This document shows positions 1-17,952 of a stretch of 54,524 bases of DNA, one piece after another. The stretch lies in IMG/VR virus record IMGVR_UViG_3300034357_000647, positions 1 to 54,524 of that record; one strand, 5' to 3'. The stretch is from a virus (taxonomy: Duplodnaviria; Caudoviricetes). Position numbers and translations under genes: made by a program. The notes beneath the pieces were generated by a model. The model searched no databases. It had not been told where the DNA came from and saw only the letters and a list, made by a program, of their open reading frames with translations. Numbering within the stretch: position 1 is the first letter of the stretch; every line of letters starts with the position of its first letter.

Positions 1-1
1 T

Positions 2-163
2 AAACCAAATGAAAGCCAGCAAGCTCCAATTGAACGTGTAACTCCAGATGCAATAATTACACCACCAAGACAAGAAGATCCATTAACAGAAATGGAGGTT
101 AAAGTTGCAACAGCAAAAGTAGTTTCAGTAGAAGATATAGAAGCTTCAATGATGGAAGATTAA
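2..163 (+). CDS. 3' end of a hypothetical protein (truncated by window start)
   Basis: Open frame KPNESQQAPIERV...EASMMED* ending just before the ATPase. Confidence 0.7.
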   Translation, partial: KPNESQQAPIERVTPDAIITPPRQEDPLTEMEVKVATAKVVSVEDIEASMMED

Positions 164-182
164 TAATTAAAACAAAATATAA

Positions 183-1034
183 GTGGCTAGAGAAGCAACA
201 TTAGGAATAGCAATCGGTAAAAAAGGTGTTGGTAAATCATATTCAACACTTGCAATGATTCAAACAGTATTAAGACACCCAAAGAAACCTAGAAAGGTTT
301 TAATTTTGGATGTAAATAATGAATTTGGGGATGTTCAAAAAGATCAAAACAAAAACTTTGCTAATATTAGAGCAATTTCATTATCCGAAATTAAAAAATG
401 GTGTTATAATGGAATAATAGAAGCTAGAAGAGTAACTGTAATGAAAGAAGGTGGTGGTAAAATGACCTTAAAAGAAACAGCAGATGCTTTAGCTGTAATA
501 TTAGAAAACTTTCAAAATGGTGTATTACTTATTGAGGATATTACAAAATTCGTATCAGATTCTTTGCCAGGAGATTTAATAGGTGCTATTTGTACACAAA
601 GGCACGTTTCATGTGATGTGATACTTCATTTTCAATCAGTTGGTAAAATGGCTAATCCAAAACTATATGCCAATACTAATTGGTTACGTGTACACAAAAC
701 GGATGATACAGTTAAACGCCACGAATCAAAGTTTGGTGAAGATGTAACTCATTTATATTTAGCTGAAAAATTGGTTGAGTTACAATATGAAAAGGGTAAC
801 ACAAGATTTTTTGTTTTTGTAGATAAAGACATGAAAAATATAAAAGGAGCGTTTACAAAAGCAATGTTTCAAGAAGCAGTAGAAGCTTATTTAGTTGACA
901 ACTATAACTTGGTTGAAAAAGAATTGAAAAAACGTGTTTTAAGAACTGGTAATTTGCTTCATCAAGATAGAACAAAAGCTACAGAACATATTATAGCAAA
1001 ATATATGAAGGAATACTATGGAAATCAAAAATAA
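183..1034 (+). CDS. FtsK/HerA-superfamily genome packaging ATPase (A32/P9-like)
   Basis: Walker A GKKGVGKS near N-terminus, ILDVNNEF strand, Walker B LLIED, arginine-finger QRH followed by HFQS; 283 aa; GTG start. Confidence 0.85.
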   Translation: MAREATLGIAIGKKGVGKSYSTLAMIQTVLRHPKKPRKVLILDVNNEFGDVQKDQNKNFANIRAISLSEIKKWCYNGIIEARRVTVMKEGGGKMTLKETADALAVILENFQNGVLLIEDITKFVSDSLPGDLIGAICTQRHVSCDVILHFQSVGKMANPKLYANTNWLRVHKTDDTVKRHESKFGEDVTHLYLAEKLVELQYEKGNTRFFVFVDKDMKNIKGAFTKAMFQEAVEAYLVDNYNLVEKELKKRVLRTGNLLHQDRTKATEHIIAKYMKEYYGNQK

Positions 1035-1157
1035 TCTTTAACTTTACATATTGAATTAATAAAGTGTGTAAATTCTATGTGTATAGAATACTGATATTGT
1101 AAACCAATAAAAGTTAAAACATACAATTGTTTTCATTATTATCATATTTTAAGTTTT

Positions 1158-1191
1158 AAATCCCGATTATTAAAAATAGTTGGGATTTTTT
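1158..1191 (+). terminator. Intrinsic terminator hairpin
   Basis: aaatcccgattat-loop-atagttgggattt followed by T run. Confidence 0.75.
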
Positions 1192-1212
1192 ATTGTGTGT
1201 TAAATTTATTGT

Positions 1213-1220
1213 TATATTTG
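1213..1220 (+). promoter_or_regulatory. Bacteroidota -7 promoter element
   Basis: TATATTTG matches TAnnTTTG. Confidence 0.6.
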
Positions 1221-1270
1221 CATATAAGTTTAACATTCATAAACTTTTTTTTATTTATATTTAGGTAAGG

Positions 1271-1302
1271 AAAATCCCGATTAATATTTAATCGGGATTT
1301 TT
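1271..1302 (+). terminator. Intrinsic terminator hairpin (near copy of 1158-1191)
   Basis: aaaatcccgattaa-tat-ttaatcgggatttt perfect inverted repeat plus T. Confidence 0.8.
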
Positions 1303-1328
1303 GTTTTTATAATTTATTATATAAATAT

Positions 1329-1336
1329 TATCTTTG
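1329..1336 (+). promoter_or_regulatory. -7 promoter element, probably giving a leaderless mRNA
   Basis: TATCTTTG ends 4 nt before ATG at 1341. Confidence 0.55.
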
Positions 1337-1340
1337 TACT

Positions 1341-2306
1341 ATGAGTACAGCAATAACTGGTAATTTAATTTCATTAGACTTCACAAATATATCGAATCAA
1401 ACAAACGATGTAAACATATTTTCTTTTGAATCAAGTGCTGGATCTACAGAAACTATATTTGTAACTGAATTTGCTTATTATCCAACCGTTCAAATAAATA
1501 ATTTATCATTTGGATCACCAACATTAGATACATTTTTCAATGCAACAATGTTTGGTTTAGTTAAGGAATTTAATGATTTTTATATAGGTATTTACTCTTT
1601 TACTTATGAATTAATTTCTGGTGTGGGTATTGGTGCTATTTATAGACTTTTTGTTAAGCAATTAAATTCTAATTATATACCAGTTTCAATATATAGTGAT
1701 CAATTTTATTATTTTACTGAAAAACAAGTTATTTCTGGTTCAACAGTAGCTGTAACATCTAATTCTGAATTAAGTTATAATGAAATTTCAAATGATTTAC
1801 AAGTACAACCATATATAATTGATTCAATTAATGTATATGCCAATACGCTTTCACAAGTAGATATTAGATGGAAAAAAATAATTAAAAATGCAAATGGAGT
1901 TTCAGCTACAGATTTTAACCAACCTAGAGTTGATCCAATGCAAAAGCAATTTGCAATTGAAAATATACCATTAAATTTTACACCAAGTTCAATAAATATT
2001 TTAGGCTACCGTTTGAATGGATTACAAACAGTACGTGTATTTTTCTATTATAGAACAAAAGATCAATTTGATTTAGCAAATAAAAATTGTTTATCAAAAG
2101 AAAACTTTGATTCAAATACTAAATTTATAAACCCAGAAATTATGATTCATAAAAAACAAATAAACATACCTTTAATTGATTTAACTAAACCAACAATAAA
2201 AGCTGTTTCTATTAAAGAAAAAATAGCAAAAGAAATTAAACCTAGAGAAATTTCTGAAGCTGAAGTTTTTAGTGCATTTGATGGTGTTGATTATAAAGAA
2301 ATGTAA
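1341..2306 (+). CDS. Capsid-protein paralogue (second or minor jelly-roll protein with inserted domain)
   Basis: LSYNEISNDLQVQPYIIDSI...NANG...PRVDPMQKQ aligns by eye with ITYAEFLQDIKSSPFKVGQI...ESNG...PRLDPMQNQ of 4591-5262. Confidence 0.6.
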   Translation: MSTAITGNLISLDFTNISNQTNDVNIFSFESSAGSTETIFVTEFAYYPTVQINNLSFGSPTLDTFFNATMFGLVKEFNDFYIGIYSFTYELISGVGIGAIYRLFVKQLNSNYIPVSIYSDQFYYFTEKQVISGSTVAVTSNSELSYNEISNDLQVQPYIIDSINVYANTLSQVDIRWKKIIKNANGVSATDFNQPRVDPMQKQFAIENIPLNFTPSSINILGYRLNGLQTVRVFFYYRTKDQFDLANKNCLSKENFDSNTKFINPEIMIHKKQINIPLIDLTKPTIKAVSIKEKIAKEIKPREISEAEVFSAFDGVDYKEM

Positions 2307-2308
2307 AT

Positions 2309-2339
2309 AAAAAAGCGAGAATTAAACCTCGCTTTTTTT
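2309..2339. terminator. Bidirectional intrinsic terminator
   Basis: aaaaaagcgag-aattaaac-ctcgctttttt between convergent genes. Confidence 0.8.
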
Positions 2340-2340
2340 A

Positions 2341-2610
2341 TTAATCAATCCATCTACGAACACTACGCTCTTGAAGCTCTTTACCATATTGCTTTTTACC
2401 GTATTTTAAATTTTCAATTTGTTTTTCTAAATTAGAAATATCAATAAATAAAATATTTCTATTTCTAATTGCACCCTCCACGAATTCAGAAGGTGCTTTA
2501 TCTTTTATATATTGCATTAAAATAGCTGTTTCAGCAGTAAGTTGTGTTTTTTTTAAATTAAGCTCTTCAACAACTACATTTGATTGTTTTTCATTAAATG
2601 GAGTTTTCAT
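2341..2610 (-). CDS. Hypothetical coiled-coil protein
   Basis: 89-aa ORF, last of a tight 3-gene minus-strand operon. Confidence 0.7.
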   Translation of the reverse strand: MKTPFNEKQSNVVVEELNLKKTQLTAETAILMQYIKDKAPSEFVEGAIRNRNILFIDISNLEKQIENLKYGKKQYGKELQERSVRRWID

Positions 2611-2611
2611 A

Positions 2612-3457
2612 TTAAATAGGATCAGTTAAATATTGAAGTTCTTTTAACTGAACTTTATCTTTTTTTATTTCTTCAATAATACCATTAACCCTATTTTTTA
2701 AAGAAGTATAGTACAGCCATAATTTTTCTTCATCATTTACATGTTCAGAATATTTATCTAAAATAAATTGCAGTTGAACATCAATACCAGTTTTAGCAAT
2801 TAAATTACCACGTTTATAATAATCTTCAACTTTTTCTTTAGCTTCAGCAAGTTCTACTTCATAAACTGGCAAAAATTGTTCAACGTAATATTCATTCCTA
2901 GAATTTAAACGTTTGTTTAAAGTTTTTAAATGAAGTTCTTTTTCAAATATTTCTAGCTTTAATTTTGAGCTTTCATAAAATGTTAATCCACCTTCAGATA
3001 AAACATTATTTCCTTCTTCAATAAAACTTTTAATGTATTCAATATTTTTTTCAAGATTATCAATTACAAAAGGGTGTTCAATATTAGCTGGTAATTTAAC
3101 AGCCTTACCAAAAATTTCATATTCAGATAATTTTTCAGCTTCTTTTTGGTGATTAATAAATTCAATCGTTTCTTTTTCTTCTTTAGTTGCAATTTTATCA
3201 ACTTGTGGTATAACGTAATGTTGGTAATCTCTTCTTGTTAATTTAAAACGTTCAGACAACTGGCGAGCTTTCCATTCATTTTCATTTAATTCAATTTGAA
3301 GTTGAGAACTTTCTAACTTTGAAAGTTTTTTACTTTCCAATTTCATTTTGATTTCTTTAATAAGATCTGAATGTAACGCTACACCTTTTGCATAGGTTTC
3401 CATTAATTTTTCAGACATATCTTTTTTGTACAATAATGTTACTAATTTTTGATCCAT
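2612..3457 (-). CDS. Hypothetical alpha-helical protein with internal duplication
   Basis: 281 aa; LSKLESSQLQIELNE...YVIP resembles LTFYESSKLKLEIFE...QFLP. Confidence 0.75.
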   Translation of the reverse strand: MDQKLVTLLYKKDMSEKLMETYAKGVALHSDLIKEIKMKLESKKLSKLESSQLQIELNENEWKARQLSERFKLTRRDYQHYVIPQVDKIATKEEKETIEFINHQKEAEKLSEYEIFGKAVKLPANIEHPFVIDNLEKNIEYIKSFIEEGNNVLSEGGLTFYESSKLKLEIFEKELHLKTLNKRLNSRNEYYVEQFLPVYEVELAEAKEKVEDYYKRGNLIAKTGIDVQLQFILDKYSEHVNDEEKLWLYYTSLKNRVNGIIEEIKKDKVQLKELQYLTDPI

Positions 3458-3468
3458 TTTATTTTGTT

Positions 3469-4188
3469 TTAATTTAATTTACCAAACCAAGTTGTGTTAT
3501 AATGCTTACATTGAATTGTTGTATCAACATAAATAGGTATTTGCAAATAGAAACAATCATTTGCAAACCAAGTATCAGAATGAAAGTTTACATTTTCAAC
3601 AGCTCTAAAAGGAATTTTTTCAAATACTGAACGGTGAATTAATACACAACCTAATCCAGCGTGATAAACTTGTTTTAATTGTCCATTAAAAAAAGTAGGT
3701 TCTTCATCTGTTAAAAATAAGGGAGTTCTATATTCACGAATATTTTTATCATACGGTTCATCAATCTGAATCATAGGAGTTCTTTTTGATCCAAAAAATA
3801 AATCATAAACACCAGCACAAACCTTTTTATTATTATTTAATAAACGTTCAATAACATCAAAAGGAGGTATAATATCAGTTTCTAAATGAAATATAAAATC
3901 AAAATCATGTTTTAAAGCATATAATCTACAAGCTTCATGTGAATCATTAATCGTAAAAATAATCCCTTTTTTATTTTGAGGGATATGTTTTACTTTAATA
4001 CCTAGATTTTTAAATTTTTTGTAATTTTCTTTTGAAATAGAATTATCGGCTAAAAAGACTTCATATCTATGAGCTGGATAAGTCAAGTTTTTTACTCGTT
4101 CCCACCAAATTTCCCAAGCATAATTTTTACTTTCATGTTGGGGCGCACAAATCAATACTTTTGGTAATTGTATTTTTTCGTTTTTCAT
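3469..4188 (-). CDS. Glycosyltransferase, GT2/GT-A fold
   Basis: KVLICAP start, FLADNS, FIFHLETD (DxD-like), GLGCVLIHRSVFEKI, SDTWF, IYVDTTIQCKH. Confidence 0.85.
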   Translation of the reverse strand: MKNEKIQLPKVLICAPQHESKNYAWEIWWERVKNLTYPAHRYEVFLADNSISKENYKKFKNLGIKVKHIPQNKKGIIFTINDSHEACRLYALKHDFDFIFHLETDIIPPFDVIERLLNNNKKVCAGVYDLFFGSKRTPMIQIDEPYDKNIREYRTPLFLTDEEPTFFNGQLKQVYHAGLGCVLIHRSVFEKIPFRAVENVNFHSDTWFANDCFYLQIPIYVDTTIQCKHYNTTWFGKLN

Positions 4189-4429
4189 TCTTTTAAATAT
4201 TTTCGTCTAAATTATATATTATAAATACCTAAAAAACAGTTATTCGTTAACATTGTTTAACGTTGCAATTAATTGATAATAAGCAAGTAAACCTTTAATA
4301 TATAACTAAATGTTATTGCTAGATTTTATAAAACCTATCAAACAACACAACTTTGTAACAATTAGCGAAACAGTGAGTGTTCGCTGTTAGCATTAAAAAA
4401 TTTGTGTAAATTTTAAAAAACAAAAAAAA

Positions 4430-4552
4430 ATGAAAACAATTAATCCATTAGTTCAAATTTTAAAAGAAGCTTTACCAGTAGTTATTGGTGTTGCTGGTGG
4501 TATGTTCGTTTATGAGTTCGCCAAAAAGCAAATGACAAAAACAACAATGTAA
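4430..4552 (+). CDS. Small membrane protein (40 aa), not in ORF track
   Basis: MKTINPLVQILKEALPVVIGVAGGMFVYEFAKKQMTKTTM*, A-rich start context, directly before capsid gene. Confidence 0.7.
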   Translation: MKTINPLVQILKEALPVVIGVAGGMFVYEFAKKQMTKTTM

Positions 4553-4590
4553 TCTTCAAAAAAGAAGTTTAATTTAAAAAAATCAAAAAA

Positions 4591-5262
4591 ATGAATTATT
4601 TTGAAACAGCAGAGAGTTTCGCAAACGAAAACTACTCTAATTATAGTGGAAGCGAATGGAATAATTTCGTAGATGCTTATGCTTATGCAGATGGTGGAGC
4701 AGAACAAGACATTGCATCTTCTTTGCCTTTCGTAATCAATATTAACAACTCTACTACAAATGACGTTAGTTCAGTAGTTGTTTTAAATGCGAATACAGCT
4801 GGAAACGCTTCAGCACCAGCATTCGGTAACAATGCAGCAATTACTATTACTATGGACAATGGTGATATTACTTATGCAGAGTTCCTACAAGACATTAAAT
4901 CTTCTCCATTTAAAGTTGGTCAGATTTACTTGCAATCAGCAAACGCTTCACAACCGTTTAAAGCATTAACAATCAAACATAGAGAATCAAATGGTATCGT
5001 AAGATCTATTCCAGTATCTCCACGTTTAGATCCAATGCAAAATCAATCTGGTGTTACTATCGTGAAATACCAATTCCCAGTAAACGCTTACACATCAATC
5101 ACAACAACAATTTTAGCAAGTGCTACATTGACTATGTCATTATATCCTTCTGAACAAATTAACGTTGCTCGTTCATTATCTGGACAAGATGTTACTAAAG
5201 CTTACGCTAGACCAAGTTTATCTCAATTACAAATTCCTAACGGAAGACCATTAGTTGGATAG
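4591..5262 (+). CDS. Putative major capsid protein, single jelly-roll-like
   Basis: 223 aa with about 8 alternating beta-strand segments; codons typical of high expression (aac, ttc, tac, atc); followed by strong terminator; acidic/aromatic N-terminal arm. Confidence 0.65.
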   Translation: MNYFETAESFANENYSNYSGSEWNNFVDAYAYADGGAEQDIASSLPFVININNSTTNDVSSVVVLNANTAGNASAPAFGNNAAITITMDNGDITYAEFLQDIKSSPFKVGQIYLQSANASQPFKALTIKHRESNGIVRSIPVSPRLDPMQNQSGVTIVKYQFPVNAYTSITTTILASATLTMSLYPSEQINVARSLSGQDVTKAYARPSLSQLQIPNGRPLVG

Positions 5263-5287
5263 TCTTACAAGATAAGTAAAATACCAT

Positions 5288-5325
5288 AAAAGGGTAGGTG
5301 GTTTAACTACCTACCTTTTTTTTTT
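5288..5325 (+). terminator. Intrinsic terminator after putative MCP
   Basis: aaaagggtaggtgg-ttta-actacctacctttt plus long T run. Confidence 0.85.
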
Positions 5326-5344: not shown

Positions 5345-5749
5345 ATGAATGTATATCAATATACAGCTTTAAACAATCCACAAGGTTCAACCAATATGGT
5401 TGAAAGTTATGGTATTAGAGCAATTAGACACCCAAAACATTTAGCGAAACAATTAGCGTTGGTAGTTGCTAAACATAGAGATAGTGCTTTGGGGAAATTA
5501 GCTGAAATTCATCCAGACGTTCCATTGTTTCAAAAACAAATTGATGATTTCAAAGTGAAAATAAAATCAGAAAGCGAAAAAAACAACTCTTCATTTTCTA
5601 ATTTTATTGATGGACAAACGATAAAATCTGATATAGCTTCACTACAAGATAAAGTTTCAACAACTCCAGAAACTGGTAAAAGCAAAACAGAATTATTAAT
5701 TATCGGTGGGGTAATAGTTATTGGTTTAGCTATCATTTTCAAAAAATAA
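5345..5749 (+). CDS. Virion membrane protein, C-terminal anchor
   Basis: Ends LLIIGGVIVIGLAIIFKK; carries FSNFIDG. Confidence 0.75.
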   Translation: MNVYQYTALNNPQGSTNMVESYGIRAIRHPKHLAKQLALVVAKHRDSALGKLAEIHPDVPLFQKQIDDFKVKIKSESEKNNSSFSNFIDGQTIKSDIASLQDKVSTTPETGKSKTELLIIGGVIVIGLAIIFKK

Positions 5750-5762
5750 AAAAAAAATAAAG

Positions 5763-6386
5763 ATGATATACGGTGGTGATATAATGAGTAATTTTTCTGG
5801 ATCAATCATGTCAAATGATAAAGAAATGCAAAAGGATATTTTATTGTCTGAAATTCATAAGATTTTAGATAAAAACCCTAAATCATTAATTGATGCCTTA
5901 AAAAATTCTGGTGTAGATGTTCCTTCAGATATATCAAAAAAACATTTAATTCATTTGGTGGTTGAAGCTGTTTATGAAAATACTAAATTTAGAGAAAATA
6001 TAGCATTTTTAATAGCTCAAAATCAAAATTCAAATTTCTCAAATGCAAATGGTGAATTAATTGATAAAATAAAAGGTTTTTTCGCCAAATCTGGTGATGG
6101 TTCATCGGATTCAACAGCTGAAGGTGCTGGTGGAAAAATTTTAGGTGGAGCTTCAAGTGGTGGTGTTGTAGGTGCTGTATCTGGAGCAGTAAATTCAATT
6201 TTTGGATTTGCTAAATCTAAAACAGATGCAAAAACACAAAAAGAAGCTGATAAACAAACATTAATATTAGCTCTTACCCAAGACGAAGAAAAAAAGAAAA
6301 GTAATTTAATGCCAATCATAATAATTGCAACTGTTTTATTAATCGGTGGTGCAATTGCAGTTGTTTCATTAAGAAATAAAAAGTAA
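5763..6386 (+). CDS. Virion membrane protein, Gly-rich segment and C-terminal anchor
   Basis: Ends IIIIATVLLIGGAIAVVSLRNKK; carries MSNFSG and FSNANG. Confidence 0.75.
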   Translation: MIYGGDIMSNFSGSIMSNDKEMQKDILLSEIHKILDKNPKSLIDALKNSGVDVPSDISKKHLIHLVVEAVYENTKFRENIAFLIAQNQNSNFSNANGELIDKIKGFFAKSGDGSSDSTAEGAGGKILGGASSGGVVGAVSGAVNSIFGFAKSKTDAKTQKEADKQTLILALTQDEEKKKSNLMPIIIIATVLLIGGAIAVVSLRNKK

Positions 6387-6389
6387 AAA

Positions 6390-6905
6390 ATGAATAATAA
6401 CGCTACTTATTACAATTGCCAAATAACGAGGGATTTTAAAGCTCCAAAACGTAATGGTGGTTCAGTAATGTACAAAGAGTTAAAAAAAAACAATGTTATT
6501 GTAGCAACACCAATAAATGCAAGCAGTACACCAAATTCTGTATTGAAAGTATTTAAAACACAAGATGGTTATATGATACCAGAAAATTGTGTTCATATAT
6601 TATCGAAAGTAAAACAACATTCAAACGTGAATGGTTCAGAAGAAATTGAATATGCAGAAATAGTTGAAGATAAGCCAAAAACAATGGCTTTACCAACACC
6701 TACTTCAATTAAAACTGGATTAACACAATCAATTCAAACAAAAAGCAAAATTGCAGTAAATGGAGCTTTAATTGGATTAGGCGTAGGATTAGTTTATGCT
6801 ATGATGAAACAGAAAAATAAATTAATGTTTTCAGCTTTAGGATCTGTAGGAGGATTCTTTATTGGAAACTTATATAATAACTATATAAACGAAGATAAAA
6901 AATGA
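6390..6905 (+). CDS. Membrane protein with two C-terminal hydrophobic helices
   Basis: GALIGLGVGLVYAMM and FSALGSVGGFFIG; carries HSNVNG. Confidence 0.75.
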   Translation: MNNNATYYNCQITRDFKAPKRNGGSVMYKELKKNNVIVATPINASSTPNSVLKVFKTQDGYMIPENCVHILSKVKQHSNVNGSEEIEYAEIVEDKPKTMALPTPTSIKTGLTQSIQTKSKIAVNGALIGLGVGLVYAMMKQKNKLMFSALGSVGGFFIGNLYNNYINEDKK

Positions 6906-7360
6906 TTACAAGAACTCAATGGAAGCCTTTAGATGCTAGGGGAATAGTGCCATTTACAGTAAATAAATCTATTACACTTGATTTATACACATGTGATAAA
7001 GATAAAGAAGGCACAAAACAAACGTTCATGAAAGATTCAAAGTTTGAAGGTCAATTAGTAAGAGCTAGAATTTCAAAACGTTTATTAAATGGTGCTTTTG
7101 TTCCACATACAGAAACAAGTGGTTTAATGGTTACTACTCCAGATAAATCTGGTTATTATTTAATTCCAACTTCTGTAGCCCAACCAATCGAAGAAGTTGA
7201 AATAGATGAAACTATTTCACCTATGAATAAATCATTAACATCAGATATTCAAACTGGATTAAAAGATATTAATGAAAACCCAGAAAAAAAATACTTTGGT
7301 TTTACTGTTAAGCAATTATTAGTAATCGGAGTAGCATTATTAATCGTAAGAAAACTTTAA
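6902..7360 (+). CDS. Membrane protein, C-terminal anchor
   Basis: Ends LLVIGVALLIVRKL. Confidence 0.7.
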   Translation: MITRTQWKPLDARGIVPFTVNKSITLDLYTCDKDKEGTKQTFMKDSKFEGQLVRARISKRLLNGAFVPHTETSGLMVTTPDKSGYYLIPTSVAQPIEEVEIDETISPMNKSLTSDIQTGLKDINENPEKKYFGFTVKQLLVIGVALLIVRKL

Positions 7361-7364
7361 AAAA

Positions 7365-7850
7365 ATGTCAAGATCTCATTACTATCATATAGATGCAATG
7401 GTTAACAATGTTGCAACAGCACCTTTAGAACCAGTATTAAGTCCAGAAACACAGCCTACATCTTCAAGACCAACAAGAGGAACAGCTGATGTCTTAACAA
7501 CTAGTCCAGTATTTACTATGCCAACTTACACACCTACAATGTCAATTGACGAAGGGGATAGTAGAGGTAATGTTTTAACAACTCGCCCAGTATTTACTAT
7601 GCCAGTTTACACGCCAACAGTAACCGTTCCGATTTCAGATGTTGTACCAGTTGCACTTGCTACGCCAACAGCAATTAAACCAATGCCTACTTATGGTGGT
7701 GGAGGTGGTGGTGGTGCTATGAGTACACCAAAACCACAAACAAAAGAATTTATGGAAGCACCAAAACCAAGTTTTTTGAAAAGAAATTGGTTGCCAATTT
7801 TATTAATTGGATCAGCAGTTTTCATTTTAATTAAAAAACCAATAAAATAA
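7365..7850 (+). CDS. Pro/Thr-rich membrane protein with poly-Gly and C-terminal anchor
   Basis: Duplicated VLTTxPVFTMPxYTPT, GGGGGGG, ends WLPILLIGSAVFILIKKPIK. Confidence 0.75.
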   Translation: MSRSHYYHIDAMVNNVATAPLEPVLSPETQPTSSRPTRGTADVLTTSPVFTMPTYTPTMSIDEGDSRGNVLTTRPVFTMPVYTPTVTVPISDVVPVALATPTAIKPMPTYGGGGGGGAMSTPKPQTKEFMEAPKPSFLKRNWLPILLIGSAVFILIKKPIK

Positions 7851-7855
7851 GCAGT

Positions 7856-8230
7856 ATGAATACAAATATGCAATTAGAATTAATCCAGAATCAACAAGAT
7901 AACCTTTCGGCTAACAAAGTTTACAGAGGTTGGTTAAATGCTGGTGGAACTGGTTCATTTAAAGACTTTATGACAAAAGCACAACAAGAAGGTTGGTTAG
8001 ACCAAGGGTTGAACGCTTTAAGTGCATTAGCATATACTAAATACGGTACAGAGGGAACAAAAGGTGATATTATTGGTGATACTCCATGTGATGAAGGTTA
8101 TGCAAAAGATGAAAATGGAATTTGTCAGCCAATCAAAAAAGGAATGTCAACTATAGCTATGGTTGGTATTGGCGTTGCTATAGCTGGGGTTATTACTGGA
8201 GTTATTATATTAATGAATAAGAAAAAATAA
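7856..8230 (+). CDS. Membrane protein with small Cys loop and C-terminal anchor
   Basis: CDEGYAKDENGIC before IAMVGIGVAIAGVITGVIILMNKKK. Confidence 0.75.
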   Translation: MNTNMQLELIQNQQDNLSANKVYRGWLNAGGTGSFKDFMTKAQQEGWLDQGLNALSALAYTKYGTEGTKGDIIGDTPCDEGYAKDENGICQPIKKGMSTIAMVGIGVAIAGVITGVIILMNKKK

Positions 8231-8236
8231 GAAATT

Positions 8237-8587
8237 ATGGGATTTAACGAAGAACTATACACAATGGGATTAAAACCAAGTGTATCTAAAAAAGGATATA
8301 ATAATTTTAATACTGGTGATGAAATACCGACATTAGCATTAAAACCAATTAATAATACAATTACACCAGAATTAACAGCGTTTAAATCAAACGCTGGATT
8401 AATGGCGTTAAAAGCAAACGAAGTATTCAAAGATTCTTTTGGTATTCCTGATTTAACTTCAACTAATACTGAAGATGAAGAAATGAAAGAAAAAATGACT
8501 ACTAAAACAAAACAAATTGTTGTTGGATCAATGGTTGCTTTGGCATTAGGTGTGGTAATTTTTATAGTAATTAAAAACAGAAAATAA
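8237..8587 (+). CDS. Membrane protein, C-terminal anchor
   Basis: Ends IVVGSMVALALGVVIFIVIKNRK; carries YNNFNTG. Confidence 0.75.
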   Translation: MGFNEELYTMGLKPSVSKKGYNNFNTGDEIPTLALKPINNTITPELTAFKSNAGLMALKANEVFKDSFGIPDLTSTNTEDEEMKEKMTTKTKQIVVGSMVALALGVVIFIVIKNRK

Positions 8588-8589
8588 TT

Positions 8590-9093
8590 ATGGGATCAAT
8601 ACCTTATTTATACGTAGTAGATGAAGCAAAAACGCTTCAAGCGAAAAACGATGAAATCATAAAAGAAGTTTGTTTTACTGAAGATTACGCGAACTTCGAT
8701 TCTAGTGATATAAGTAAAATTTGTGATGGTTTAGGTACTAAATCTGGAGATTGTACAGACCAATTAGATGGAACTGAATCTACTGGTTATGATTTAGACT
8801 TCAATATTAAATATTGGAAAGCAGTAAAAAAAGGGTATAAAGGTACAATTAAAGAATTTGATGATCGTCAACAAAAAGTTGGTAAAGCATTCGGTTACGC
8901 AACAACAGCTGGTACTTTTTTAGCTGGTTTGTTATCAAAAAAATCTAATCAAGGTGAATCAGTAAGTTATGACAAAACAACGGAAGAAGATATTAAACCA
9001 AAAATGAGTATTGGTTCAATATTAGGTTTAAGTGTTGGTGTAATAGCTTTAATAGGTGTAGGTTTATATTTTGCTTTAAGAGATAAAAAATAA
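8590..9093 (+). CDS. Membrane protein, C-terminal anchor
   Basis: Ends ILGLSVGVIALIGVGLYFALRDKK; carries YANFDS. Confidence 0.75.
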   Translation: MGSIPYLYVVDEAKTLQAKNDEIIKEVCFTEDYANFDSSDISKICDGLGTKSGDCTDQLDGTESTGYDLDFNIKYWKAVKKGYKGTIKEFDDRQQKVGKAFGYATTAGTFLAGLLSKKSNQGESVSYDKTTEEDIKPKMSIGSILGLSVGVIALIGVGLYFALRDKK

Positions 9094-9099: not shown

Positions 9100-9861
9100 A
9101 TGAACGAATTTAAAATACCTTGTAACGGAGAGCCAAGCAAAATACTTTTAAAAGTGAGTGTAAATTCACCAATAAAAGTACGTGTAATGGCTTTTAATCC
9201 AAATGTGCCAAATACGTACTATACTAATAGAGTAAAAACAGTTAATGGTCAAGGTGAGTTTGAAGTTCGTATGCCACAAAATTGCGAAAATGTAATTGTA
9301 AGAGTTATACCTTTAAATGGAGCAAGTAATCAATTAAAAATTGTTTCAGTTGAAAAACAAAAACTAAATCAATTTTCAAATTGTTTTTCAGATAAAAACA
9401 TAATGAGCTTTGTTAAGTTCGCACAAGAATTTAGTGAAAAAGCTTCAATTTTATCAAAAGGAACTTATTATAGTGATGATCGTAAATATAGAATTGATTA
9501 TTTTGATGTAATTACACAAGAGGGAAGAACAATACCAACTCCAGCACGTATAAGTAACATAAATGGTAGAATGGAAGTTGCAAAAAGAAGTTTTGTAAAC
9601 TATACAGTACCAATGAGAATGGCAATTTTGTTGCATGAATATTCACACTTTAACTTGAATAAAATTCAGCACGATGAAATTGAAGCAGACTTAAACGCGT
9701 TAAGAATCTATTTGGGGTTAGGCTATCCAGTAATTGAAGCACATAACTCATTTTTAAATGTATTTAAAAATACACCAACACAACAAAATAAAGAACGCTA
9801 TCAATATATAAAAACGTTCATTGATAATTTTGAAACGTTAAAATATAAAATTTGTTTATAA
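9100..9861 (+). CDS. Zincin metallopeptidase with N-terminal beta domain
   Basis: AILLHEYSH (HExxH) followed by EIEAD...GY, an M48-like ligand pattern. Confidence 0.75.
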   Translation: MNEFKIPCNGEPSKILLKVSVNSPIKVRVMAFNPNVPNTYYTNRVKTVNGQGEFEVRMPQNCENVIVRVIPLNGASNQLKIVSVEKQKLNQFSNCFSDKNIMSFVKFAQEFSEKASILSKGTYYSDDRKYRIDYFDVITQEGRTIPTPARISNINGRMEVAKRSFVNYTVPMRMAILLHEYSHFNLNKIQHDEIEADLNALRIYLGLGYPVIEAHNSFLNVFKNTPTQQNKERYQYIKTFIDNFETLKYKICL

Positions 9862-12081: not shown

Positions 12082-12681
12082 ATGAAAGTAAATTACGTTA
12101 AAGTAGGAATTTTTTCAGTTTTAGGTGTGGCTACCATTTATGGAGGTTATAAACTGCATAAATATTTTAAAGAAAAAGCTGAAAAAGCTCGTTTAGAAAA
12201 ATTATTAAAAGAAAGCACCTCACAAATAGCTGTTACTGAAGTTCTTTCTTCTAACAACGCTGAAAAAGAAATAGTTGTAACCCCAGCATTTGATGGGAAT
12301 AAAGTTGTTTCAAAAGGTTCAAAAGGTGTTGAAGCAAAAACAATTCAATTAGCATTTAATAATATTATTGAAGATGCTAAAAAAGTTAATTTATTAGCAA
12401 TACCAAGTAATTATAAACCTTCTGAAGAAAAATCAGCTTCATCATGGCTTTTAGAGCCTTTTAAGGCATCAATTGCAGTAGGTAATCTTGTAAAAGTTAG
12501 TGAAAGAGTTAAACAAATTGCTTCTTTACAAAAATTAGCAACAGATGGTAATTTTGGTGCAAAATCAGAAAGTGTTTGTCAAGTAATTATGGGTAAAAAA
12601 TCAACTACTTATAATGAAGTAATGCAAAAAAGAGTTAACTTTTCTAAAGCATACGGTTTGCCAAATCCATATAACAAATAA
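12082..12681 (+). CDS. N-anchored protein with split peptidoglycan-binding-like motif
   Basis: VSKGSKGVEAKTIQLAFN ... LATDGNFGAKSE matches both halves of PG_binding_1 pattern. Confidence 0.6.
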   Translation: MKVNYVKVGIFSVLGVATIYGGYKLHKYFKEKAEKARLEKLLKESTSQIAVTEVLSSNNAEKEIVVTPAFDGNKVVSKGSKGVEAKTIQLAFNNIIEDAKKVNLLAIPSNYKPSEEKSASSWLLEPFKASIAVGNLVKVSERVKQIASLQKLATDGNFGAKSESVCQVIMGKKSTTYNEVMQKRVNFSKAYGLPNPYNK

Positions 12682-12696
12682 AATAAAAACTAAATT

Positions 12697-13002
12697 ATGA
12701 ATCAAGAAATATTACACGATAGTTACGATTACGCTGGAGGAGTTCAATTAGATGGATGTTGGTTAAAATATCCGGGCAAAAAAAACAAAACAAAGCGTGA
12801 AGAGTGCCATGCCTTATCAACAAAACAAAAAGAATCGAGTTTAGAAACTGATAAAATGTTAGCACAAGCTGTTTTAGCTAAAAGCACAAAAACAACAAAA
12901 GAAGAGGGTTTGTCAGCAATGGCTATAACTGGTATTATTGTAGGTTCATTACTTGCAATAACGTTAATGGTTGTTGTAATTAAAAAAGTAAAATCAAAAT
13001 AA
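12697..13002 (+). CDS. Membrane protein, C-terminal anchor
   Basis: YDYAGG near N-terminus; ends AITGIIVGSLLAITLMVVVIKKVKSK. Confidence 0.75.
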   Translation: MNQEILHDSYDYAGGVQLDGCWLKYPGKKNKTKREECHALSTKQKESSLETDKMLAQAVLAKSTKTTKEEGLSAMAITGIIVGSLLAITLMVVVIKKVKSK

Positions 13003-13009
13003 TTAGATC

Positions 13010-13495
13010 ATGACTTTAAAAAAAGGATTAATATTAGCTGGTATTGGAAGTTTAGTAGTTGGAATAGCTTTATGGGTAAAATACCAAATGGAATTGAGTT
13101 ATAAGTTAATTTATAACACAAAAAATGCTCGTTTAAAAAAGTTTACAGCAAATGAACTTGTTGTAGAATTTGATATGACTATTGATAATCCAACAGAATT
13201 AAAAGTAGGCATCAATGGAATGGACATAGATGTATATGCAAATGGCGTTAAAGTTACAAATATATATAGTCAAGTTCCAATTACACTTTCACCGAATACA
13301 ATGGTTGCTCTACCTTTAAAATTATCTTTAAATCCACAATCATTAATCCAAAATACTGGAGTTTTATTAAGTACTGGAACGGATATTAAGAAAGTGCTTT
13401 TAACATTAAAAGGTACACTTAAAATTAAGAAATTTGGTATTTCGTTCCCAGTACCATTTGTGTACACAGCAACTTATGGAGAATTAATGGGATAA
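13010..13495 (+). CDS. LEA_2/WHy-like beta-sandwich membrane protein
   Basis: N-terminal TM then FDMTIDNPT...MDIDVYANG...LTLKGTLKI pattern. Confidence 0.7.
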   Translation: MTLKKGLILAGIGSLVVGIALWVKYQMELSYKLIYNTKNARLKKFTANELVVEFDMTIDNPTELKVGINGMDIDVYANGVKVTNIYSQVPITLSPNTMVALPLKLSLNPQSLIQNTGVLLSTGTDIKKVLLTLKGTLKIKKFGISFPVPFVYTATYGELMG

Positions 13496-13555
13496 TGCCT
13501 TGAATCTTTTACTTTTTTTACTATATTTATGCCTTGAAATTAAAAACACAAGAAA

Positions 13556-13984
13556 ATGATAGTAGGAAAAGTAAAAGGAATCATGACAAATTGTTTAATA
13601 AGATTAGCAAGCAATGAACAAAAGCACGAAACGAGCGTTTCAATTGGCATAAGAACAACAGAAGAGGATTTTACACCTTCATATTTTTACACAGTCAACG
13701 GACAACCAGTAATGAATGAAGAGAAAACAGAATTTAAAGAATTAGATTTTAACAGAGATATATTAGGCGTTAAATTTGATTTATTAGGTCAAAAATATTT
13801 AACTGCAAATTATATTAAAAATCTAATTAAATCAGTTGTTGAGGTAGAAAAAATACCTTCAAAAGAACTGTTTTATTTAATTAGATTTATAGATTCTGAT
13901 TCAAAAGTTTTAACAGTTGGAATGTATCAAAAAGGTAAATTTTTAAGATCAATGTCAATAAATGACTTTTTAGGAGATAATTAA
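13556..13984 (+). CDS. Hypothetical protein
   Basis: 142-aa ORF with A-rich start context. Confidence 0.7.
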   Translation: MIVGKVKGIMTNCLIRLASNEQKHETSVSIGIRTTEEDFTPSYFYTVNGQPVMNEEKTEFKELDFNRDILGVKFDLLGQKYLTANYIKNLIKSVVEVEKIPSKELFYLIRFIDSDSKVLTVGMYQKGKFLRSMSINDFLGDN

Positions 13985-14004
13985 ATAAAAAAAAAATACA
14001 AGAA

Positions 14005-14283
14005 ATGAGTACAATTTTAACGGAAACTTTCACTACAGAATTAACAAACAATTCTATAACATTAACAGAAGGCATGGGGGTTAGGGCAATTACAGTTTAT
14101 TGTACCACAACTACAAGTGGAACAGTAACTGGTTCTCAACCATTAGGTTCAATATCTTCATCAGCAATTACAATTACGCAAAATACTTCATTTAATCAAT
14201 CTGCAATTGGAACTGGAGTTTTAACTGGTTTAACAATTACAGCACCAGCAAGTTGTACATTAATAGTTGTAGCACAAATTTAA
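14005..14283 (+). CDS. Small all-beta structural protein (vertex or spike base candidate)
   Basis: 92 aa, Thr/Ser/Gly-rich alternating strands, directly before spike genes. Confidence 0.55.
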   Translation: MSTILTETFTTELTNNSITLTEGMGVRAITVYCTTTTSGTVTGSQPLGSISSSAITITQNTSFNQSAIGTGVLTGLTITAPASCTLIVVAQI

Positions 14284-14292
14284 TTTTAAGAA

Positions 14293-16026
14293 ATGGGAAT
14301 TATAGGAAATGGTGGTTTAACAATTTTTAATAGTGGTTCGTCTGGTACTATTACAGCACAAAATTTACCAGTTAAATTTGTAGATACTGTTACGGGAATG
14401 GCAACACCATCAAGTGTTTACGTAAGTGGTTCAGATCCAACACAACCAGCACTGGGTGCAACATTAACAGCCTCAATTAATAGTACATTACCAAACTACA
14501 ATGGAGTAACTTCATTTGTAGGTATGAAAATTTTATTAACTAATCAATTTACACCAGCACAAAATGGTGATTATGTAGTTACTTCAATTGGTAGTGCTTC
14601 TTCTAAATGGTCAATGACTAGAATTACATATAGTTCTGAAGGTTTTTATCCTTCTTTATGGGAAGTCTATCAAGGCACATTAATAGGTAATTTTTATGAA
14701 CAAACAACTTCTACTTTAAACACTTCAACTATAGGTACTGTAGGAAGTATAGTTTTTCTTAACGTAACGCCAACTTCAGCAAGTGGAATTTGGGGTATAT
14801 CAAATTCAAGTGGAGTTTATACTTATTATACAACTTATGCATTAGCAAGAGCAGCAGCTACATCTGGACAAACAATTGAATTATTTGCAGATGTTACTGA
14901 AACAACTGATGTATCAATTATATTAAAAGATGGTGTAAATATTAATGGTAATGGTCATACTTACATCTTATCTCAAGCTAGTACATCATCAACAATAACT
15001 GATAATGCAGTAGCTGTTACTTGTGATGTTTCAGATATAATTTTAAAACGTAGTGGGGGAACTGCATCATTATCAAATACTGCTACTATATTATTAAGTG
15101 GTGCATCTAAAGTTACTGGTACAGCAATTTGCTATAGTTCTTGTGGAGTAAGTATTTTAATTACAAATGCTTCTGCTGAATTAAATGGTTTTAAAGGTAT
15201 AACAACAACAAATTATCTTGGTGTTTATTCTAATGGAATATTAAAAAATATACATGGAGAATCATATTCAAATGATTACCATTATTCAATCTTTTCAACT
15301 GGAACCTCTATAAATTGTCATGCTTTAGGTTTTGGATTATATAATTACGCATTTTATAACGGTGGGATATCAACTAATTGTACTGGAACAGTAACTGGAA
15401 GTTTCGGGGGTGGTTTTTTTAATGATGGTGGTACTGCAATTGCAACTAATTGTAGTGGAAAATCAGTTGGTAATATTGGTTTTAGATCAGGTGGAGCTGC
15501 TATTAACTGTGTAGGTGTTTCAACGTCAGGTAGAGGTTTTTCTGGTCAAGGTTCAGGAAATATTTTAGAAAAATGTTCTGGTTATAGTTCTTCAAATGTT
15601 GGGTTTTATTCTTATGGTTCTAGGGCTATTGATTGCACTGGTGTATCGATGTCAAACATAGGGGTAACAATTGAAAATGGTAATGATAGTCAAGCTGGAT
15701 GTATTAATTGCACTGGTGTATCTTATGCAAATGTAGGAATGTTTTGTAATTTCGCACCAAATAACCTTGGTGTTGTAACTCCTAAAGCGATTTCATATTA
15801 TAATAACGCAGCTGGTCATGCTTTACAGATTGGTTCATTTGGAAATACAGTTATTAATGGTTATTTAGCAGCTGGAGCTACTACTGCTAATTGTATATAT
15901 AGTGCATCAGTAATTTCAACTAAATACGCTCAAAATACTTATGTAATAGCAACCACCCCAGTAAATGCAAACATAACCCAATCAATGGTTAATACACAGG
16001 ATAATTACGGTAATATTTTATTATAA
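14293..16026 (+). CDS. Spike/receptor-binding protein with beta-helix repeats
   Basis: 577 aa; ILLTNQFTPAQNGDYVVT fibre-type motif; recurring NCxG repeats (TNCTG, TNCSG, INCVG, IDCTG, INCTG). Confidence 0.75.
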   Translation: MGIIGNGGLTIFNSGSSGTITAQNLPVKFVDTVTGMATPSSVYVSGSDPTQPALGATLTASINSTLPNYNGVTSFVGMKILLTNQFTPAQNGDYVVTSIGSASSKWSMTRITYSSEGFYPSLWEVYQGTLIGNFYEQTTSTLNTSTIGTVGSIVFLNVTPTSASGIWGISNSSGVYTYYTTYALARAAATSGQTIELFADVTETTDVSIILKDGVNINGNGHTYILSQASTSSTITDNAVAVTCDVSDIILKRSGGTASLSNTATILLSGASKVTGTAICYSSCGVSILITNASAELNGFKGITTTNYLGVYSNGILKNIHGESYSNDYHYSIFSTGTSINCHALGFGLYNYAFYNGGISTNCTGTVTGSFGGGFFNDGGTAIATNCSGKSVGNIGFRSGGAAINCVGVSTSGRGFSGQGSGNILEKCSGYSSSNVGFYSYGSRAIDCTGVSMSNIGVTIENGNDSQAGCINCTGVSYANVGMFCNFAPNNLGVVTPKAISYYNNAAGHALQIGSFGNTVINGYLAAGATTANCIYSASVISTKYAQNTYVIATTPVNANITQSMVNTQDNYGNILL

Positions 16027-16316
16027 TGTTAGAAAAATTAGATATAATAGATCAGGATGTATGTTGCTATAATGAACAATACAATCTTGAAAAAGTTTTA
16101 AAATTATCTCAATTTGTGGGAATTGATTTTAGTTATTTAGAAGGTGCAAAATTATTTACATTAAATATTACTCAACCAATAAAAAGAGTAGTTAAATTTA
16201 CTGATTTAAATGGTGCAACTCTTAATGATGAATTTGTTATATTCCCATATGATGATATGACACCTGAACAAAAAGCAGATTTTGATTCATTTGTAGAACA
16301 AGCAAATACTTTATAA
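16026..16316 (+). CDS. Small acidic protein, probable spike chaperone
   Basis: Coupled directly to preceding spike gene. Confidence 0.55.
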   Translation: MLEKLDIIDQDVCCYNEQYNLEKVLKLSQFVGIDFSYLEGAKLFTLNITQPIKRVVKFTDLNGATLNDEFVIFPYDDMTPEQKADFDSFVEQANTL

Positions 16317-16317
16317 A

Positions 16318-17952
16318 ATGGCAGTTATAACATTAACAACACAAATGGCTGGTGCTATTAATTACACAGCTACAACTGCATCTTCAGCTGATTGGTCTTC
16401 AGTATCGAACAGTACATATTTTTATGATTTAACAGATAAATTAGTTCATTATAAAAATTCAACTGGAGCAGTATTAGAAATATATGGTTCAGCTGGAGGG
16501 TTAACATACTTTACGGAAGCTCAAAACACTTCAGCACCAAATGCAACAGTAAATGTTGATTCATTAACAGCAATAGCAAGTACAACAAATGCTGATATTT
16601 CTATTGTGCCTAAAGGTACTGGAGCATTTCAATTAGCTGTTCCAGATAATACTACAACTGGTGGAAATAAAAGAGGTCAATATGCAATCGATTTGCAAAG
16701 GATAAGAAGTGCAGCTGCTGGTGCAGCAAGTGGTGATTATTCTTGTATCGTAGGAGGTAGAAATAATACTGCTTCGGGAGAAAGAAGCATGATTTTAGGA
16801 GGTTCTGAAAATACAACAAGTGGGGCAGTAGCAGTAGCAATAGGAGGTTCAAATAATTCAACTGCTGTTTATGCTGTTACAATTGGGTATCAAAACACAG
16901 CAAGTGGAAACTTTTCTGTTGCTATGGGTAATTCTTGTGCAGCAAGTGGATCTAGCTCAACATCATTAGGGATAAGTAATAATATAAGTGGAACAGCAGG
17001 TTTTGGGGCAGGAAGTACAAACACAAATTCTGGTAATTACTCTGCTGTATTTGGACTATCTAATTCAATATCAGGTGCATATACTATTAGAGCTGGTAAT
17101 GGTAATACTGGCAATGCTGCTTATTCAGTAACAACTGGTTACAATAATGTTGTAAGTGGTTCTGAAAATGGTTGTTTCGGTTCTTCATCAACTGTTAGTG
17201 CTAATTATGGTTTTAGTTTAGGTTATCAAAATTCTGTTACTGGACTTTATGGTTTAGCATTAGGAAAAGCGTGTACATCATCACTAGATAGTGCTACTGC
17301 AATAGGTTTACGTTGTAAAGCTACTGGAGAAACTTCTTTAGCTATTGGTGGTTATTTTTATTCTGATTCAACAGCAAGTGGTGGTAATAGTATTATTGTA
17401 GGTTTTGGAACAGCTAGTAGTTCGTTTTCTTCTATATTTGGAAGTGGTACGTGTGACGCACCTTATTCAACTGTTTTAGGGTATCAAGGAAATGCTTTTG
17501 GTTTAACATCAAAAGTTTCTATTAGTACAAATATTTTCACGTCAGCAGGAGATTCTCAAAAAGGTATTGCAAGATATGGAAGAAGAACAACAGATGCAAC
17601 AGTTTCAACGTTAACAGCAAACGGAAATGCTTTAGTTAATCAATCAACTATTTTAGGTTTACAAAACCAACAAATGATTAGGTTTAAAGGTTCTATTACT
17701 GGTAAGCAAAGTGGTTCAACAAATGTTGGAGTATGGGATATTGATGGAGTTATAGTAAGAGGTGCTAATGCAGCTTCAACAACATTAACAATATCTAACA
17801 TTAATTTAGTAACAAATGCTAGTGGGTGGGGATCGCCAACAGTTTCAGCAGACACAACAAATGGAGCTTTAAAAATAGATGTTCAAGGGTTAGCTGGAAC
17901 TAATATACAATGGTTAGCAATTTTAGATACAGTAGAAAATTTATACTTATAA
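16318..17952 (+). CDS. Fibre/spike adhesin with YadA-head-like 14-aa repeats (may be chimeric)
   Basis: Repeats such as ASGNFSVAMGNSCA, ASGSSSTSLGISNN; shares segments with 52407-54524. Confidence 0.8.
   Translation: MAVITLTTQMAGAINYTATTASSADWSSVSNSTYFYDLTDKLVHYKNSTGAVLEIYGSAGGLTYFTEAQNTSAPNATVNVDSLTAIASTTNADISIVPKGTGAFQLAVPDNTTTGGNKRGQYAIDLQRIRSAAAGAASGDYSCIVGGRNNTASGERSMILGGSENTTSGAVAVAIGGSNNSTAVYAVTIGYQNTASGNFSVAMGNSCAASGSSSTSLGISNNISGTAGFGAGSTNTNSGNYSAVFGLSNSISGAYTIRAGNGNTGNAAYSVTTGYNNVVSGSENGCFGSSSTVSANYGFSLGYQNSVTGLYGLALGKACTSSLDSATAIGLRCKATGETSLAIGGYFYSDSTASGGNSIIVGFGTASSSFSSIFGSGTCDAPYSTVLGYQGNAFGLTSKVSISTNIFTSAGDSQKGIARYGRRTTDATVSTLTANGNALVNQSTILGLQNQQMIRFKGSITGKQSGSTNVGVWDIDGVIVRGANAASTTLTISNINLVTNASGWGSPTVSADTTNGALKIDVQGLAGTNIQWLAILDTVENLYL
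16974..17673 (+). repeat. 700-bp direct repeat, copy 1
   Basis: Matches 53825-54524 except A17058 vs T53909 (CTA/CTT, synonymous), read by eye. Confidence 0.95.

Follow-up and report, generated by a model that had tools for sequence, protein, structure and literature searches.

A lake-water virus record that most likely joins part of a tailless membrane virus to a complete siphovirus

The IMG/VR record IMGVR_UViG_3300034357_000647 is a single virus contig of 54,524 bp, analysed here over its whole length (the window), and the question it raises is to which virus its first ~17.6 kb (hereafter the block) belong. A preliminary description, made from the sequence, had placed this block at positions 1-16973 and read it as the virion module of a separate, tailless, membrane-containing virus, perhaps of a single-jelly-roll lineage that infects Bacteroidota and was not recognised as a described family. 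In our analysis the best overall explanation, to which we assign a probability of roughly 0.75, is that a fragment of a tailless membrane virus was joined during assembly to an unrelated, complete siphovirus. The sequencing runs that contain the stretch are labelled as lake-water metagenomes, three of them with at least 0.95 of the sampled words; two of these three may be the source of the record. Nearly all genes of the window lie on the plus strand, and no tRNA genes were found in it.

The tailed part of the window closes on itself without the block. The last 733 nt of the contig (53793-54524, copy B) are 98.9% identical over 733 columns to positions 16942-17673 (copy A), with six mismatches and two gaps, and since the final 615 nt are an exact copy, the contig ends inside the repeat; a second matching segment relates 53471-53695 to 16488-16712 at 87%. 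Joining position 54524 to 17674 gives a circle of 36,851 bp, compared with 36,429 bp of unique sequence in a 36,552-bp IMG/VR siphovirus (G003) that carries a 123-nt direct terminal repeat, is rated 100% complete by CheckV and does not contain the block. An IMG/VR portal search found close relatives of the tailed part, and both G003 and a 32,190-bp siphovirus (G002, 97.6% identical to the siphovirus part over 17 kb) are colinear with window positions 17.2-54.5 kb taken as a circle, the fibre gene being followed in them by homologues of 17956-18303 or 18528-18884 and then of 19823 onward. This part encodes a large terminase (gene start 34267), a tape measure protein (40795), a ClpP-type protease (47033), a capsid protein (48226) and a portal (50528), as well as a DUF4942 methyltransferase and a tail fibre. 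We also considered the contig as a whole to be circular and rejected this, as terminal repeats are absent and the last open reading frame (ORF) does not read through into base 1.

Hence, judging from the sequence, we consider the record most likely to be an assembly chimera of two co-occurring lake-water viruses (a 'lasso' assembly), the two having been joined because spike 2 of the block and the siphovirus tail fibre share the 733-nt segment. The assembler would have run from a fragment of one virus through the common repeat, passed once around the complete siphovirus, and halted on re-entering the repeat. The sequence of spike 2 from about 17059 on is assignable to no single virus, and the end given earlier for the block, 16973, sits at the start of the repeat, which is the real boundary zone; most of the content assigned to the block stands, while its end does not. 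The public record overstates the size of the siphovirus by 17.7 kb.

The block, in turn, is found without the siphovirus. Its ATPase and its 223-amino-acid (aa) capsid candidate each match a single IMG/VR contig besides the window's own record, namely G001, a contig of 64,176 bp that we read whole. Homologues of 24 block ORFs (183 to 18303) lie in G001 in the same order, except for one 16.5-kb insert between ATPase and paralogue. A metagenome scan for the 223-aa family yielded at least 101 loci, 80 of which were kept, and together with one locus from a 12.5-kb contig of a metagenome-assembled genome (MAG) these make 81. The 223-aa protein is encoded in all 81, the membrane protein starting at 5345 in 67, the glycosyltransferase in 59, the ATPase in 38, the peptidase in 29 and the paralogue in 25, and the conserved order runs RusA, a DnaA-C-like protein, an acidic protein with GRP motifs, ATPase, paralogue, three opposite-strand genes including the glycosyltransferase, 223-aa protein, membrane proteins and peptidase. 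No match to any of the 64 window ORFs from 14005 on occurred in the 81 loci, and the 223-aa protein is encoded in none of the five tailed-phage relatives searched.

Searches for tailed-phage genes beside the block genes agreed with this. The 21 non-core ORFs of at least 330 aa in the relatives' neighbourhoods (11 clusters; 10 representatives scanned) gave no tailed-phage structural family, and 15 ORFs of at least 250 aa outside the conserved core of G001 (10 compared with Pfam and PHROGs, five with PHROGs alone) gave no terminase, portal or HK97 capsid match; the window's terminase and Pfam Terminase_6N likewise had no match in G001. In the block itself the ten largest ORFs matched no terminase, portal, HK97 capsid or tail family in Pfam or PHROGs, such genes being located at 34-52 kb. 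Tetranucleotide profiles place the block closer to G001 (0.95-0.97) than to the phage part (0.92-0.96). That the block is a virus separate from the tailed part, as had been proposed, is thus upheld by a siphovirus circle that closes without it, by G003, and by G001 and the 81 loci, in which block genes occur without phage-part genes, swapped spike domains aside. What does not hold is the 17-kb block as a whole virus. The contig starts mid-gene: ORF 2-163 holds only the C-terminal end of a conserved protein that in relatives precedes the ATPase (57% identical to the C-terminus of a 328-aa protein just upstream of the G001 ATPase, E 4e-11; the family is present in 36 of the 83 sources of an all-against-all comparison, to which all source counts below refer). 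The complete virus is far larger than these 17 kb; the only relative read whole has 64 kb.

The packaging ATPase is the clearest indication of what kind of virus this is. Alone, the protein matches Pfam DUF87/HerA at its P-loop part only (E 3e-5), as do 22 of 28 relatives for DUF87, and the single sequence found nothing significant in the PDB. An exhaustive profile search returned 628 representatives (clustered at 50% identity) at E <= 1e-3, 243 of them at E <= 1e-30, from which a broad profile of 49 sequences was taken; a narrower profile, of the 28 relatives, was used as well. With hhalign the 49-sequence profile matched the ATPase of P23-77 (probability 93%, E 2.8e-7, 153 columns) and P9 of PM2 (probability 77%, 137 columns); PRD1 P9 and the Bam35 ATPase aligned at the P-loop only. 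Best in the PDB were B204 of STIV2 and STIV (E 1.2e-4 and 4.7e-4, residues 8-176 against 6-161), HerA chains aligning at residues 9-68 only, and as a negative control the window's own terminase reached a probability of 0.4% against the 28-sequence profile. The motifs GKKGVGKS, LLIED, TQRH and HFQS, all noticed earlier, are invariant or nearly so in the 28 relatives, and Walker A G.KGVGK[ST] and Walker B LL(I/V)ED with its catalytic glutamate are so in both the 28 and the 49 sequences. Lengths are mostly 267-342 aa among 150 listed relatives, besides a few shorter fragments. There is thus good evidence, from profile comparison, that ORF 183-1034 is a packaging ATPase of the membrane-containing icosahedral virus type, and its assignment to the enzymes that package DNA in internal-membrane viruses is borne out over the whole domain by P23-77, PM2 and STIV/STIV2 B204.

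The capsid assignment is less firm. The 223-aa protein and the 321-aa protein encoded at 1341-2306 are weak paralogues, as had been suspected (BLASTP E 1e-5, 26% identity over 77 residues, a common PR[VL]DPMQ motif), and fall into the same cluster of the all-against-all comparison. Both were modelled as jelly-roll-like sandwiches; in the model of the 223-aa protein (predicted local distance difference test score 72, predicted template modelling (TM) score 0.63) the N-terminal 42 residues are disordered and the core, residues 45-205, is well predicted. Foldseek with this model found nothing in the PDB at E <= 1e-3, and matches in PDB and BFVD, which were weak, generic jelly-roll, C1q or collagen-associated and had TM-scores of at most 0.35, were set aside. 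For both paralogues the structure comparison ranks first the penton-like base domain of spike protein P5 of PR772 (chain O, whose resolved part is a penton-like domain homologous to P31), at scores within the aligner's background. The models are consistent with a fold that is jelly-roll-like and of a single domain, and show no specific relationship. A predicted complex of the capsid core with the paralogue's conserved domain scored 0.00, which is evidence neither way.

Nevertheless, a major-capsid role of the 223-aa protein is favoured, because its conservation is near that of the ATPase, its length is constant among relatives, a terminator-like hairpin lies 3' of its gene (top-listed among 13 such sites, chance expectation 5.7 +/- 2.5), and no other conserved beta-rich candidate lies nearby. 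No fused or longer forms were found among 1856 candidates, which is weak evidence. The 223-aa protein is accordingly listed in Table 1 as a candidate, modelled major capsid protein, and the paralogue, which ranges from 201 to 839 aa in relatives with only the C-terminal ~200 aa in common, could by analogy correspond to the tower-bearing second capsid protein of Halopanivirales or to the penton and spike base of PRD1. Of the single-jelly-roll capsid suggested in the preliminary description, the jelly-roll-like, single-domain model stands; for the capsid role, that model is of medium confidence and the fold scores are at background level.

How far the paralogues can be read differently is best seen from the explanation in which the block belongs to an ordinary double-jelly-roll (Tectiliviricetes-like) virus and the two proteins are penton and spike base, as P31 and P5 in PRD1. 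The paralogue's extension, varying from 0 to ~640 aa as in spike proteins, would suit this, as would the match of the ATPase profile to PM2 P9 and the presence in G001 of unannotated ORFs of 303, 411 and 770 aa. We nonetheless find this explanation unlikely, given that the 223-aa protein is conserved about like the ATPase (mean column identity 55% vs 64%), that no other conserved beta-rich protein of at least 250 aa occurs within 10 kb of its gene in the 81 loci, and that the nearest ATPase is the one from P23-77, whose two capsid proteins are single jelly rolls. A conserved 355-aa gene upstream of the ATPase was tried as a hidden double-jelly-roll capsid gene and rejected, its product being acidic, of low complexity, with GRP motifs, judged helical and of no Pfam or PHROG family, and hence no capsid protein.

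Two further explanations concern the nature of the block as such. The window could be one real genome, either a siphovirus carrying the block as cargo or a natural cointegrate, and it is indeed a single contig with G+C of ~29% throughout (0.297 in the block, 0.293 in the phage part), whose two repeat copies are distinct loci and not one collapsed sequence, because they differ by six mismatches and two gaps. However, the contig stops exactly where the 36.85-kb circle closes and begins mid-gene, a complete phage relative lacks the block, G001 and the 81 loci lack the genes of the phage part except for swapped spike domains, and 54.5 kb would presumably overfill a capsid whose relatives package 36.5 kb, making one genome very improbable. 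Scarcely credible to us is that the block serves a plasmid-like element for membrane-associated transfer or secretion, driven by a HerA/Zot-like ATPase: the many membrane proteins of the block, the confinement of Pfam matches to the P-loop region (DUF87, AAA_25, and Zot in one of 28 members) and the mention of Zot in automatic protein-atlas cluster names would agree with it, yet the whole-domain matches are to viral packaging ATPases and not to HerA, G001 encodes an endolysin, tailspike-like spikes, RecT and SbcC, and the spikes share receptor-binding domains with tail fibres. Moreover, the 223-aa family, compared with one genome each of 185,579 species, had as its sole match a 12,548-bp contig (53% identity) in a MAG labelled Candidatus Saccharibacteria, and an element with this single, short match is rare in the chromosomes and plasmids of sequenced cells.

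Returning to the tailless membrane virus, some observations weigh against this reading or parts of it. The relative in the Saccharibacteria-labelled MAG misfits a Bacteroidota host unless the viral contig was mis-binned; otherwise it would indicate that other phyla, too, are infected by parts of the lineage. The PR772 P5 base-domain match fits a vertex role as well as a capsid role, and the capsid profile has no sequence similarity to VP16 and VP17 of P23-77 (hhalign probability 0.1% and 0.5%), to PRD1 P31 or to any PDB chain. Finally, terminal repeats, inverted or direct, are missing from G001; it may therefore be incomplete, and further capsid genes may lie outside it.

As we picture it, the block would be the virion-morphogenesis region, with its 5' end missing, of a tailless icosahedral virus with an internal membrane, arranged in the order tail of a DNA-binding accessory protein, packaging ATPase, two jelly-roll-like paralogues, glycosyltransferase, tail-anchored membrane proteins, metallopeptidase and two vertex spikes. 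The small tail-anchored proteins would populate an inner lipid vesicle, the capsid proteins would assemble on a virus-modified membrane patch, the ATPase would pump the dsDNA into the membrane-lined procapsid by way of a unique vertex, and host binding would fall to the spikes. On this gene content the virion would be tailless and membrane-lined.

The spikes connect the two viruses of the record. Residues 148-577 of spike 1 are 84% identical to the C-terminal (distal) part of the G002 tail fibre, and the 96-aa ORF after spike 1 is 47% identical to the ORF following that fibre. Spike 2 is 36% identical over nearly its full length to a 413-aa spike of G001 and 82% identical over 395 aligned columns to the window's own tail fibre, and a 739-aa spike of G001 matches the siphovirus protein 43827-45803 in two segments. 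A small ORF comes after each spike, in the way that genes for assembly helpers come after those for tail fibres. Receptor-binding cassettes, with the downstream small ORF, therefore appear from these alignments to have been swapped between two unrelated virus types. As a further observation, siphoviruses ~98% identical elsewhere differ at the tips of their fibres, with each tip resembling another of the two spikes in the block (window 14783-16286 with G002 13395-14898, and window 16318-18303 with G003 13971-16596).

An exchange of cassettes between two virus types speaks for a shared host. Of 149 phage records matched by the siphovirus portal, 146 are named for Bacteroidota genera, and a Shine-Dalgarno-like motif precedes none of 27 block genes and two of 57 phage genes. 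Absent Shine-Dalgarno motifs are typical of Bacteroidota, and because of this absence together with the receptor-binding modules held in common with a Bacteroidota-type siphovirus, the block virus and the siphovirus appear, on these sequence signals, to infect the same Bacteroidota host. The host proposed earlier is therefore plausible, from the motif counts, the names of the portal matches and the shared modules.

The features of the window are collected in Table 1.

Table 1. Features of the block and of the joined siphovirus; positions are those of the window.
Feature	Positions	Strand	Basis or remark
Acidic, mostly helical protein with GRP (AT-hook-like) motifs, 3' end only	2..163	+	truncated by window start
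Packaging ATPase, viral FtsK-HerA type (P9/B204-like), 283 aa	183..1034	+	DUF87 and profile matches
Paralogue of capsid candidate, 321 aa; second capsid protein or vertex protein	1341..2306	+	C-terminal ~200 aa conserved, N-terminal extension variable
Three opposite-strand genes: 89-aa protein, 281-aa helical protein, GT-A-like glycosyltransferase (3469-4188)	2341..4188	-	
Major capsid protein candidate, 223 aa, single jelly-roll-like beta sandwich	4591..5262	+	
Terminator-like hairpin directly 3' of capsid candidate gene	5288..5320	+	15-bp stem and T run
Uninterrupted series of eight small proteins with a single C-terminal membrane helix and a basic tail	5345..9093	+	hydropathy scan
HExxH metallopeptidase-like protein	9100..9861	+	HExxH in 30/30 relatives
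Further small membrane proteins, N- or C-terminal helix	10382..13495	+	hydropathy; G001 homologues in same order
Two conserved small proteins just before the spikes	13556..14283	+	G001 homologues 42% and 50% identical, same position
Spike 1 (577 aa; ORF 14293-16026) and 96-aa downstream ORF	14293..16316	+	
Spike 2 (544 aa as the contig reads)	16318..17952	+	YadA-head and beta-roll repeats
Repeat copy A, likely assembly switch point between two viruses	16942..17673	+	
Complete siphovirus, 36,851-bp circle, separate from the block's virus	17674..54524	+	

The gene inventory of the preliminary description proved largely correct, both spike-like ORFs and the zinc protease included, the latter with a conserved block PMRMAI..HE..H..LN....DE.EAD and no family matched in Pfam or PHROGs. 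Single-pass membrane proteins are present too, although at 13-15 by hydropathy and not at about 17. The Kyte-Doolittle scan found a single C-terminal hydrophobic helix followed by a basic tail in 10 small proteins (gene starts 5345, 5763, 6390, 6902, 7365, 7856, 8237, 8590, 10888 and 12697), an N-terminal helix in three (10382, 11760 and 13010) and borderline cases in two (12082 and 14005). From their sequences, those of 5345-9093 are candidates for proteins of an internal membrane of the virion, and the genes starting at 5345, 5763, 6390 and 6902 are conserved in 25-65 sources. Within the membrane-protein gene 7365-7850 lies a 50-nt direct repeat (7489-7538 and 7570-7619, 86% identical) that encodes a repeated TSPVFTMPTYTPT-like motif. 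The membrane-anchored protein 13010-13495, which is 61% identical in G001, contains a LEA_2 domain (E 2.2e-9), an odd domain for a virion module. Among the opposite-strand genes, the 281-aa protein is kept in 49 sources and the glycosyltransferase in 54, the latter with weak matches to Anp1 (Pfam) and to a PHROG glycosyltransferase and with a conserved HLETD motif.

G001 also encodes RecT, an SbcC-like protein, RusA, a DnaA-C-type DNA-binding protein, an endolysin and a tailspike-like spike. Upstream of its ATPase, at 48659-50556, lie RusA (E 3.5e-19), a DnaA-C-type helix-turn-helix protein (E 4.9e-12) and the acidic protein with GRP motifs at one or both ends, which may be accessories of genome recognition or packaging. 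Its insert (31.3-47.7 kb) is a large anti-restriction island within the morphogenesis region. Among the genes found there are those for a 719-aa protein with a ddrB-ParB domain, for an Eco57I-type methylase of 410 aa and for a split DarB-like methylase/helicase (1680 aa) that includes a Zeta-toxin-like kinase domain.

The 223-aa family comprises 116 clusters at 90% identity, of 158-243 aa and on contigs of up to 93,865 bp, and occurs in marine and freshwater metagenomes. A comparison with 50,697 deposited phage genomes gave no match to the DNA of the block, to its ATPase or to the 223-aa protein; no classified or cultured phage is thus known to carry the block, in agreement with the earlier remark that the lineage was not recognised as a described family. 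We found no description of such a lineage in the literature, where supplementary contig lists (e.g., PMC5894146) might include members; the 4.6-kb element of 10.1101/2025.08.03.668216 is, in the part of that source available, unrelated. We would file the block virus as a kind of tailless, internal-membrane dsDNA virus with a P9/B204-type packaging ATPase, outside every existing family. More tentatively, and at somewhat short of even odds, it would stand for a large, widespread and undescribed lineage, at family level or above, of such viruses in aquatic bacteria, probably Bacteroidota, with a shell of two paralogous single-jelly-roll proteins, an ATPase nearest to that of Halopanivirales, genomes of 64 kb or more (~3-4 times any known member of this architecture) with RecT, SbcC, RusA and anti-restriction genes, and receptor-binding cassettes traded with co-infecting siphoviruses at identities of up to 100% over 615 nt.

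If true, the cassette trade would amount to recent gene flow between two virus realms, and the near-identical segment of spike and tail fibre would be a tangible example of how modules for host recognition pass between viruses of unrelated structure, a sharing that also generates chimeric 'viral genomes' in public catalogues. Software for finding viruses relies on the genes of tailed phages, which leaves tailless phages with membranes badly under-sampled, as is seen from one IMG/VR contig besides the window's record against at least 101 metagenome loci and hundreds of ATPase clusters. Should a two-jelly-roll shell be confirmed, it would place a Helvetiavirae-like architecture in common mesophilic aquatic bacteria, at a genome size new for it, and would inform the debated relationship between single- and double-jelly-roll capsids.

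Among known systems, PM2 (Corticoviridae) and PRD1 and Bam35 (Tectiviridae) are by annotation tailless viruses with an internal membrane, a small packaging ATPase encoded beside the capsid proteins and several small membrane proteins in a row, features that the block, known from genes, would share. PM2 is closer in its P9, which matches the ATPase profile, and Tectiviridae in the PR772 P5 base domain as top fold match of both paralogues, whereas for PRD1 P9 and the Bam35 ATPase the match is confined to the P-loop. Both families differ in having genomes of 10-15 kb, and G001 shows no inverted terminal repeats. No double-jelly-roll protein was recognised by Pfam or PHROGs in the block, in G001 or in the neighbourhood of the block genes in relatives, and no terminal protein or protein-primed polymerase was noticed among the G001 ORFs scanned, no search having been aimed at them. 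STIV/STIV2 B204 (Turriviridae) is the best solved-structure match of the ATPase profile, over the whole domain and at a modest E-value; STIV is an archaeal virus with a double-jelly-roll capsid protein. The capsid of SPV1 (Portogloboviridae) is made of a single-jelly-roll major protein and a paralogous single-jelly-roll penton, as may hold for the two paralogues of the block, but SPV1 is archaeal, of ~20 kb and not known to encode a packaging ATPase. Unlike the block, Finnlakeviridae (FLiP, phiCjT23) are, according to the available part of the source, ssDNA viruses of ~9 kb with a double-jelly-roll capsid protein and no packaging ATPase (PMC5894146).

P23-77 (Halopanivirales, Matshushitaviridae) differs from the block virus in its capsid proteins, which have no sequence similarity to those of the block, in its 17-kb genome compared with 64 kb for G001, and in its gene arrangement, since in the block three opposite-strand genes part the paralogues and one paralogue has a very variable extension; Halopanivirales are moreover viruses of Thermus and haloarchaea, as opposed to the probable Bacteroidota host proposed here. 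On the other hand, P23-77 provides the best match of the ATPase, its ATPase gene is by annotation closely followed by two capsid-type genes of ~170-290 aa, and many small structural or membrane proteins lie downstream of its ATPase and capsid genes. In conclusion, the closest known system is the morphogenesis core of Halopanivirales, an ATPase with two small capsid proteins.

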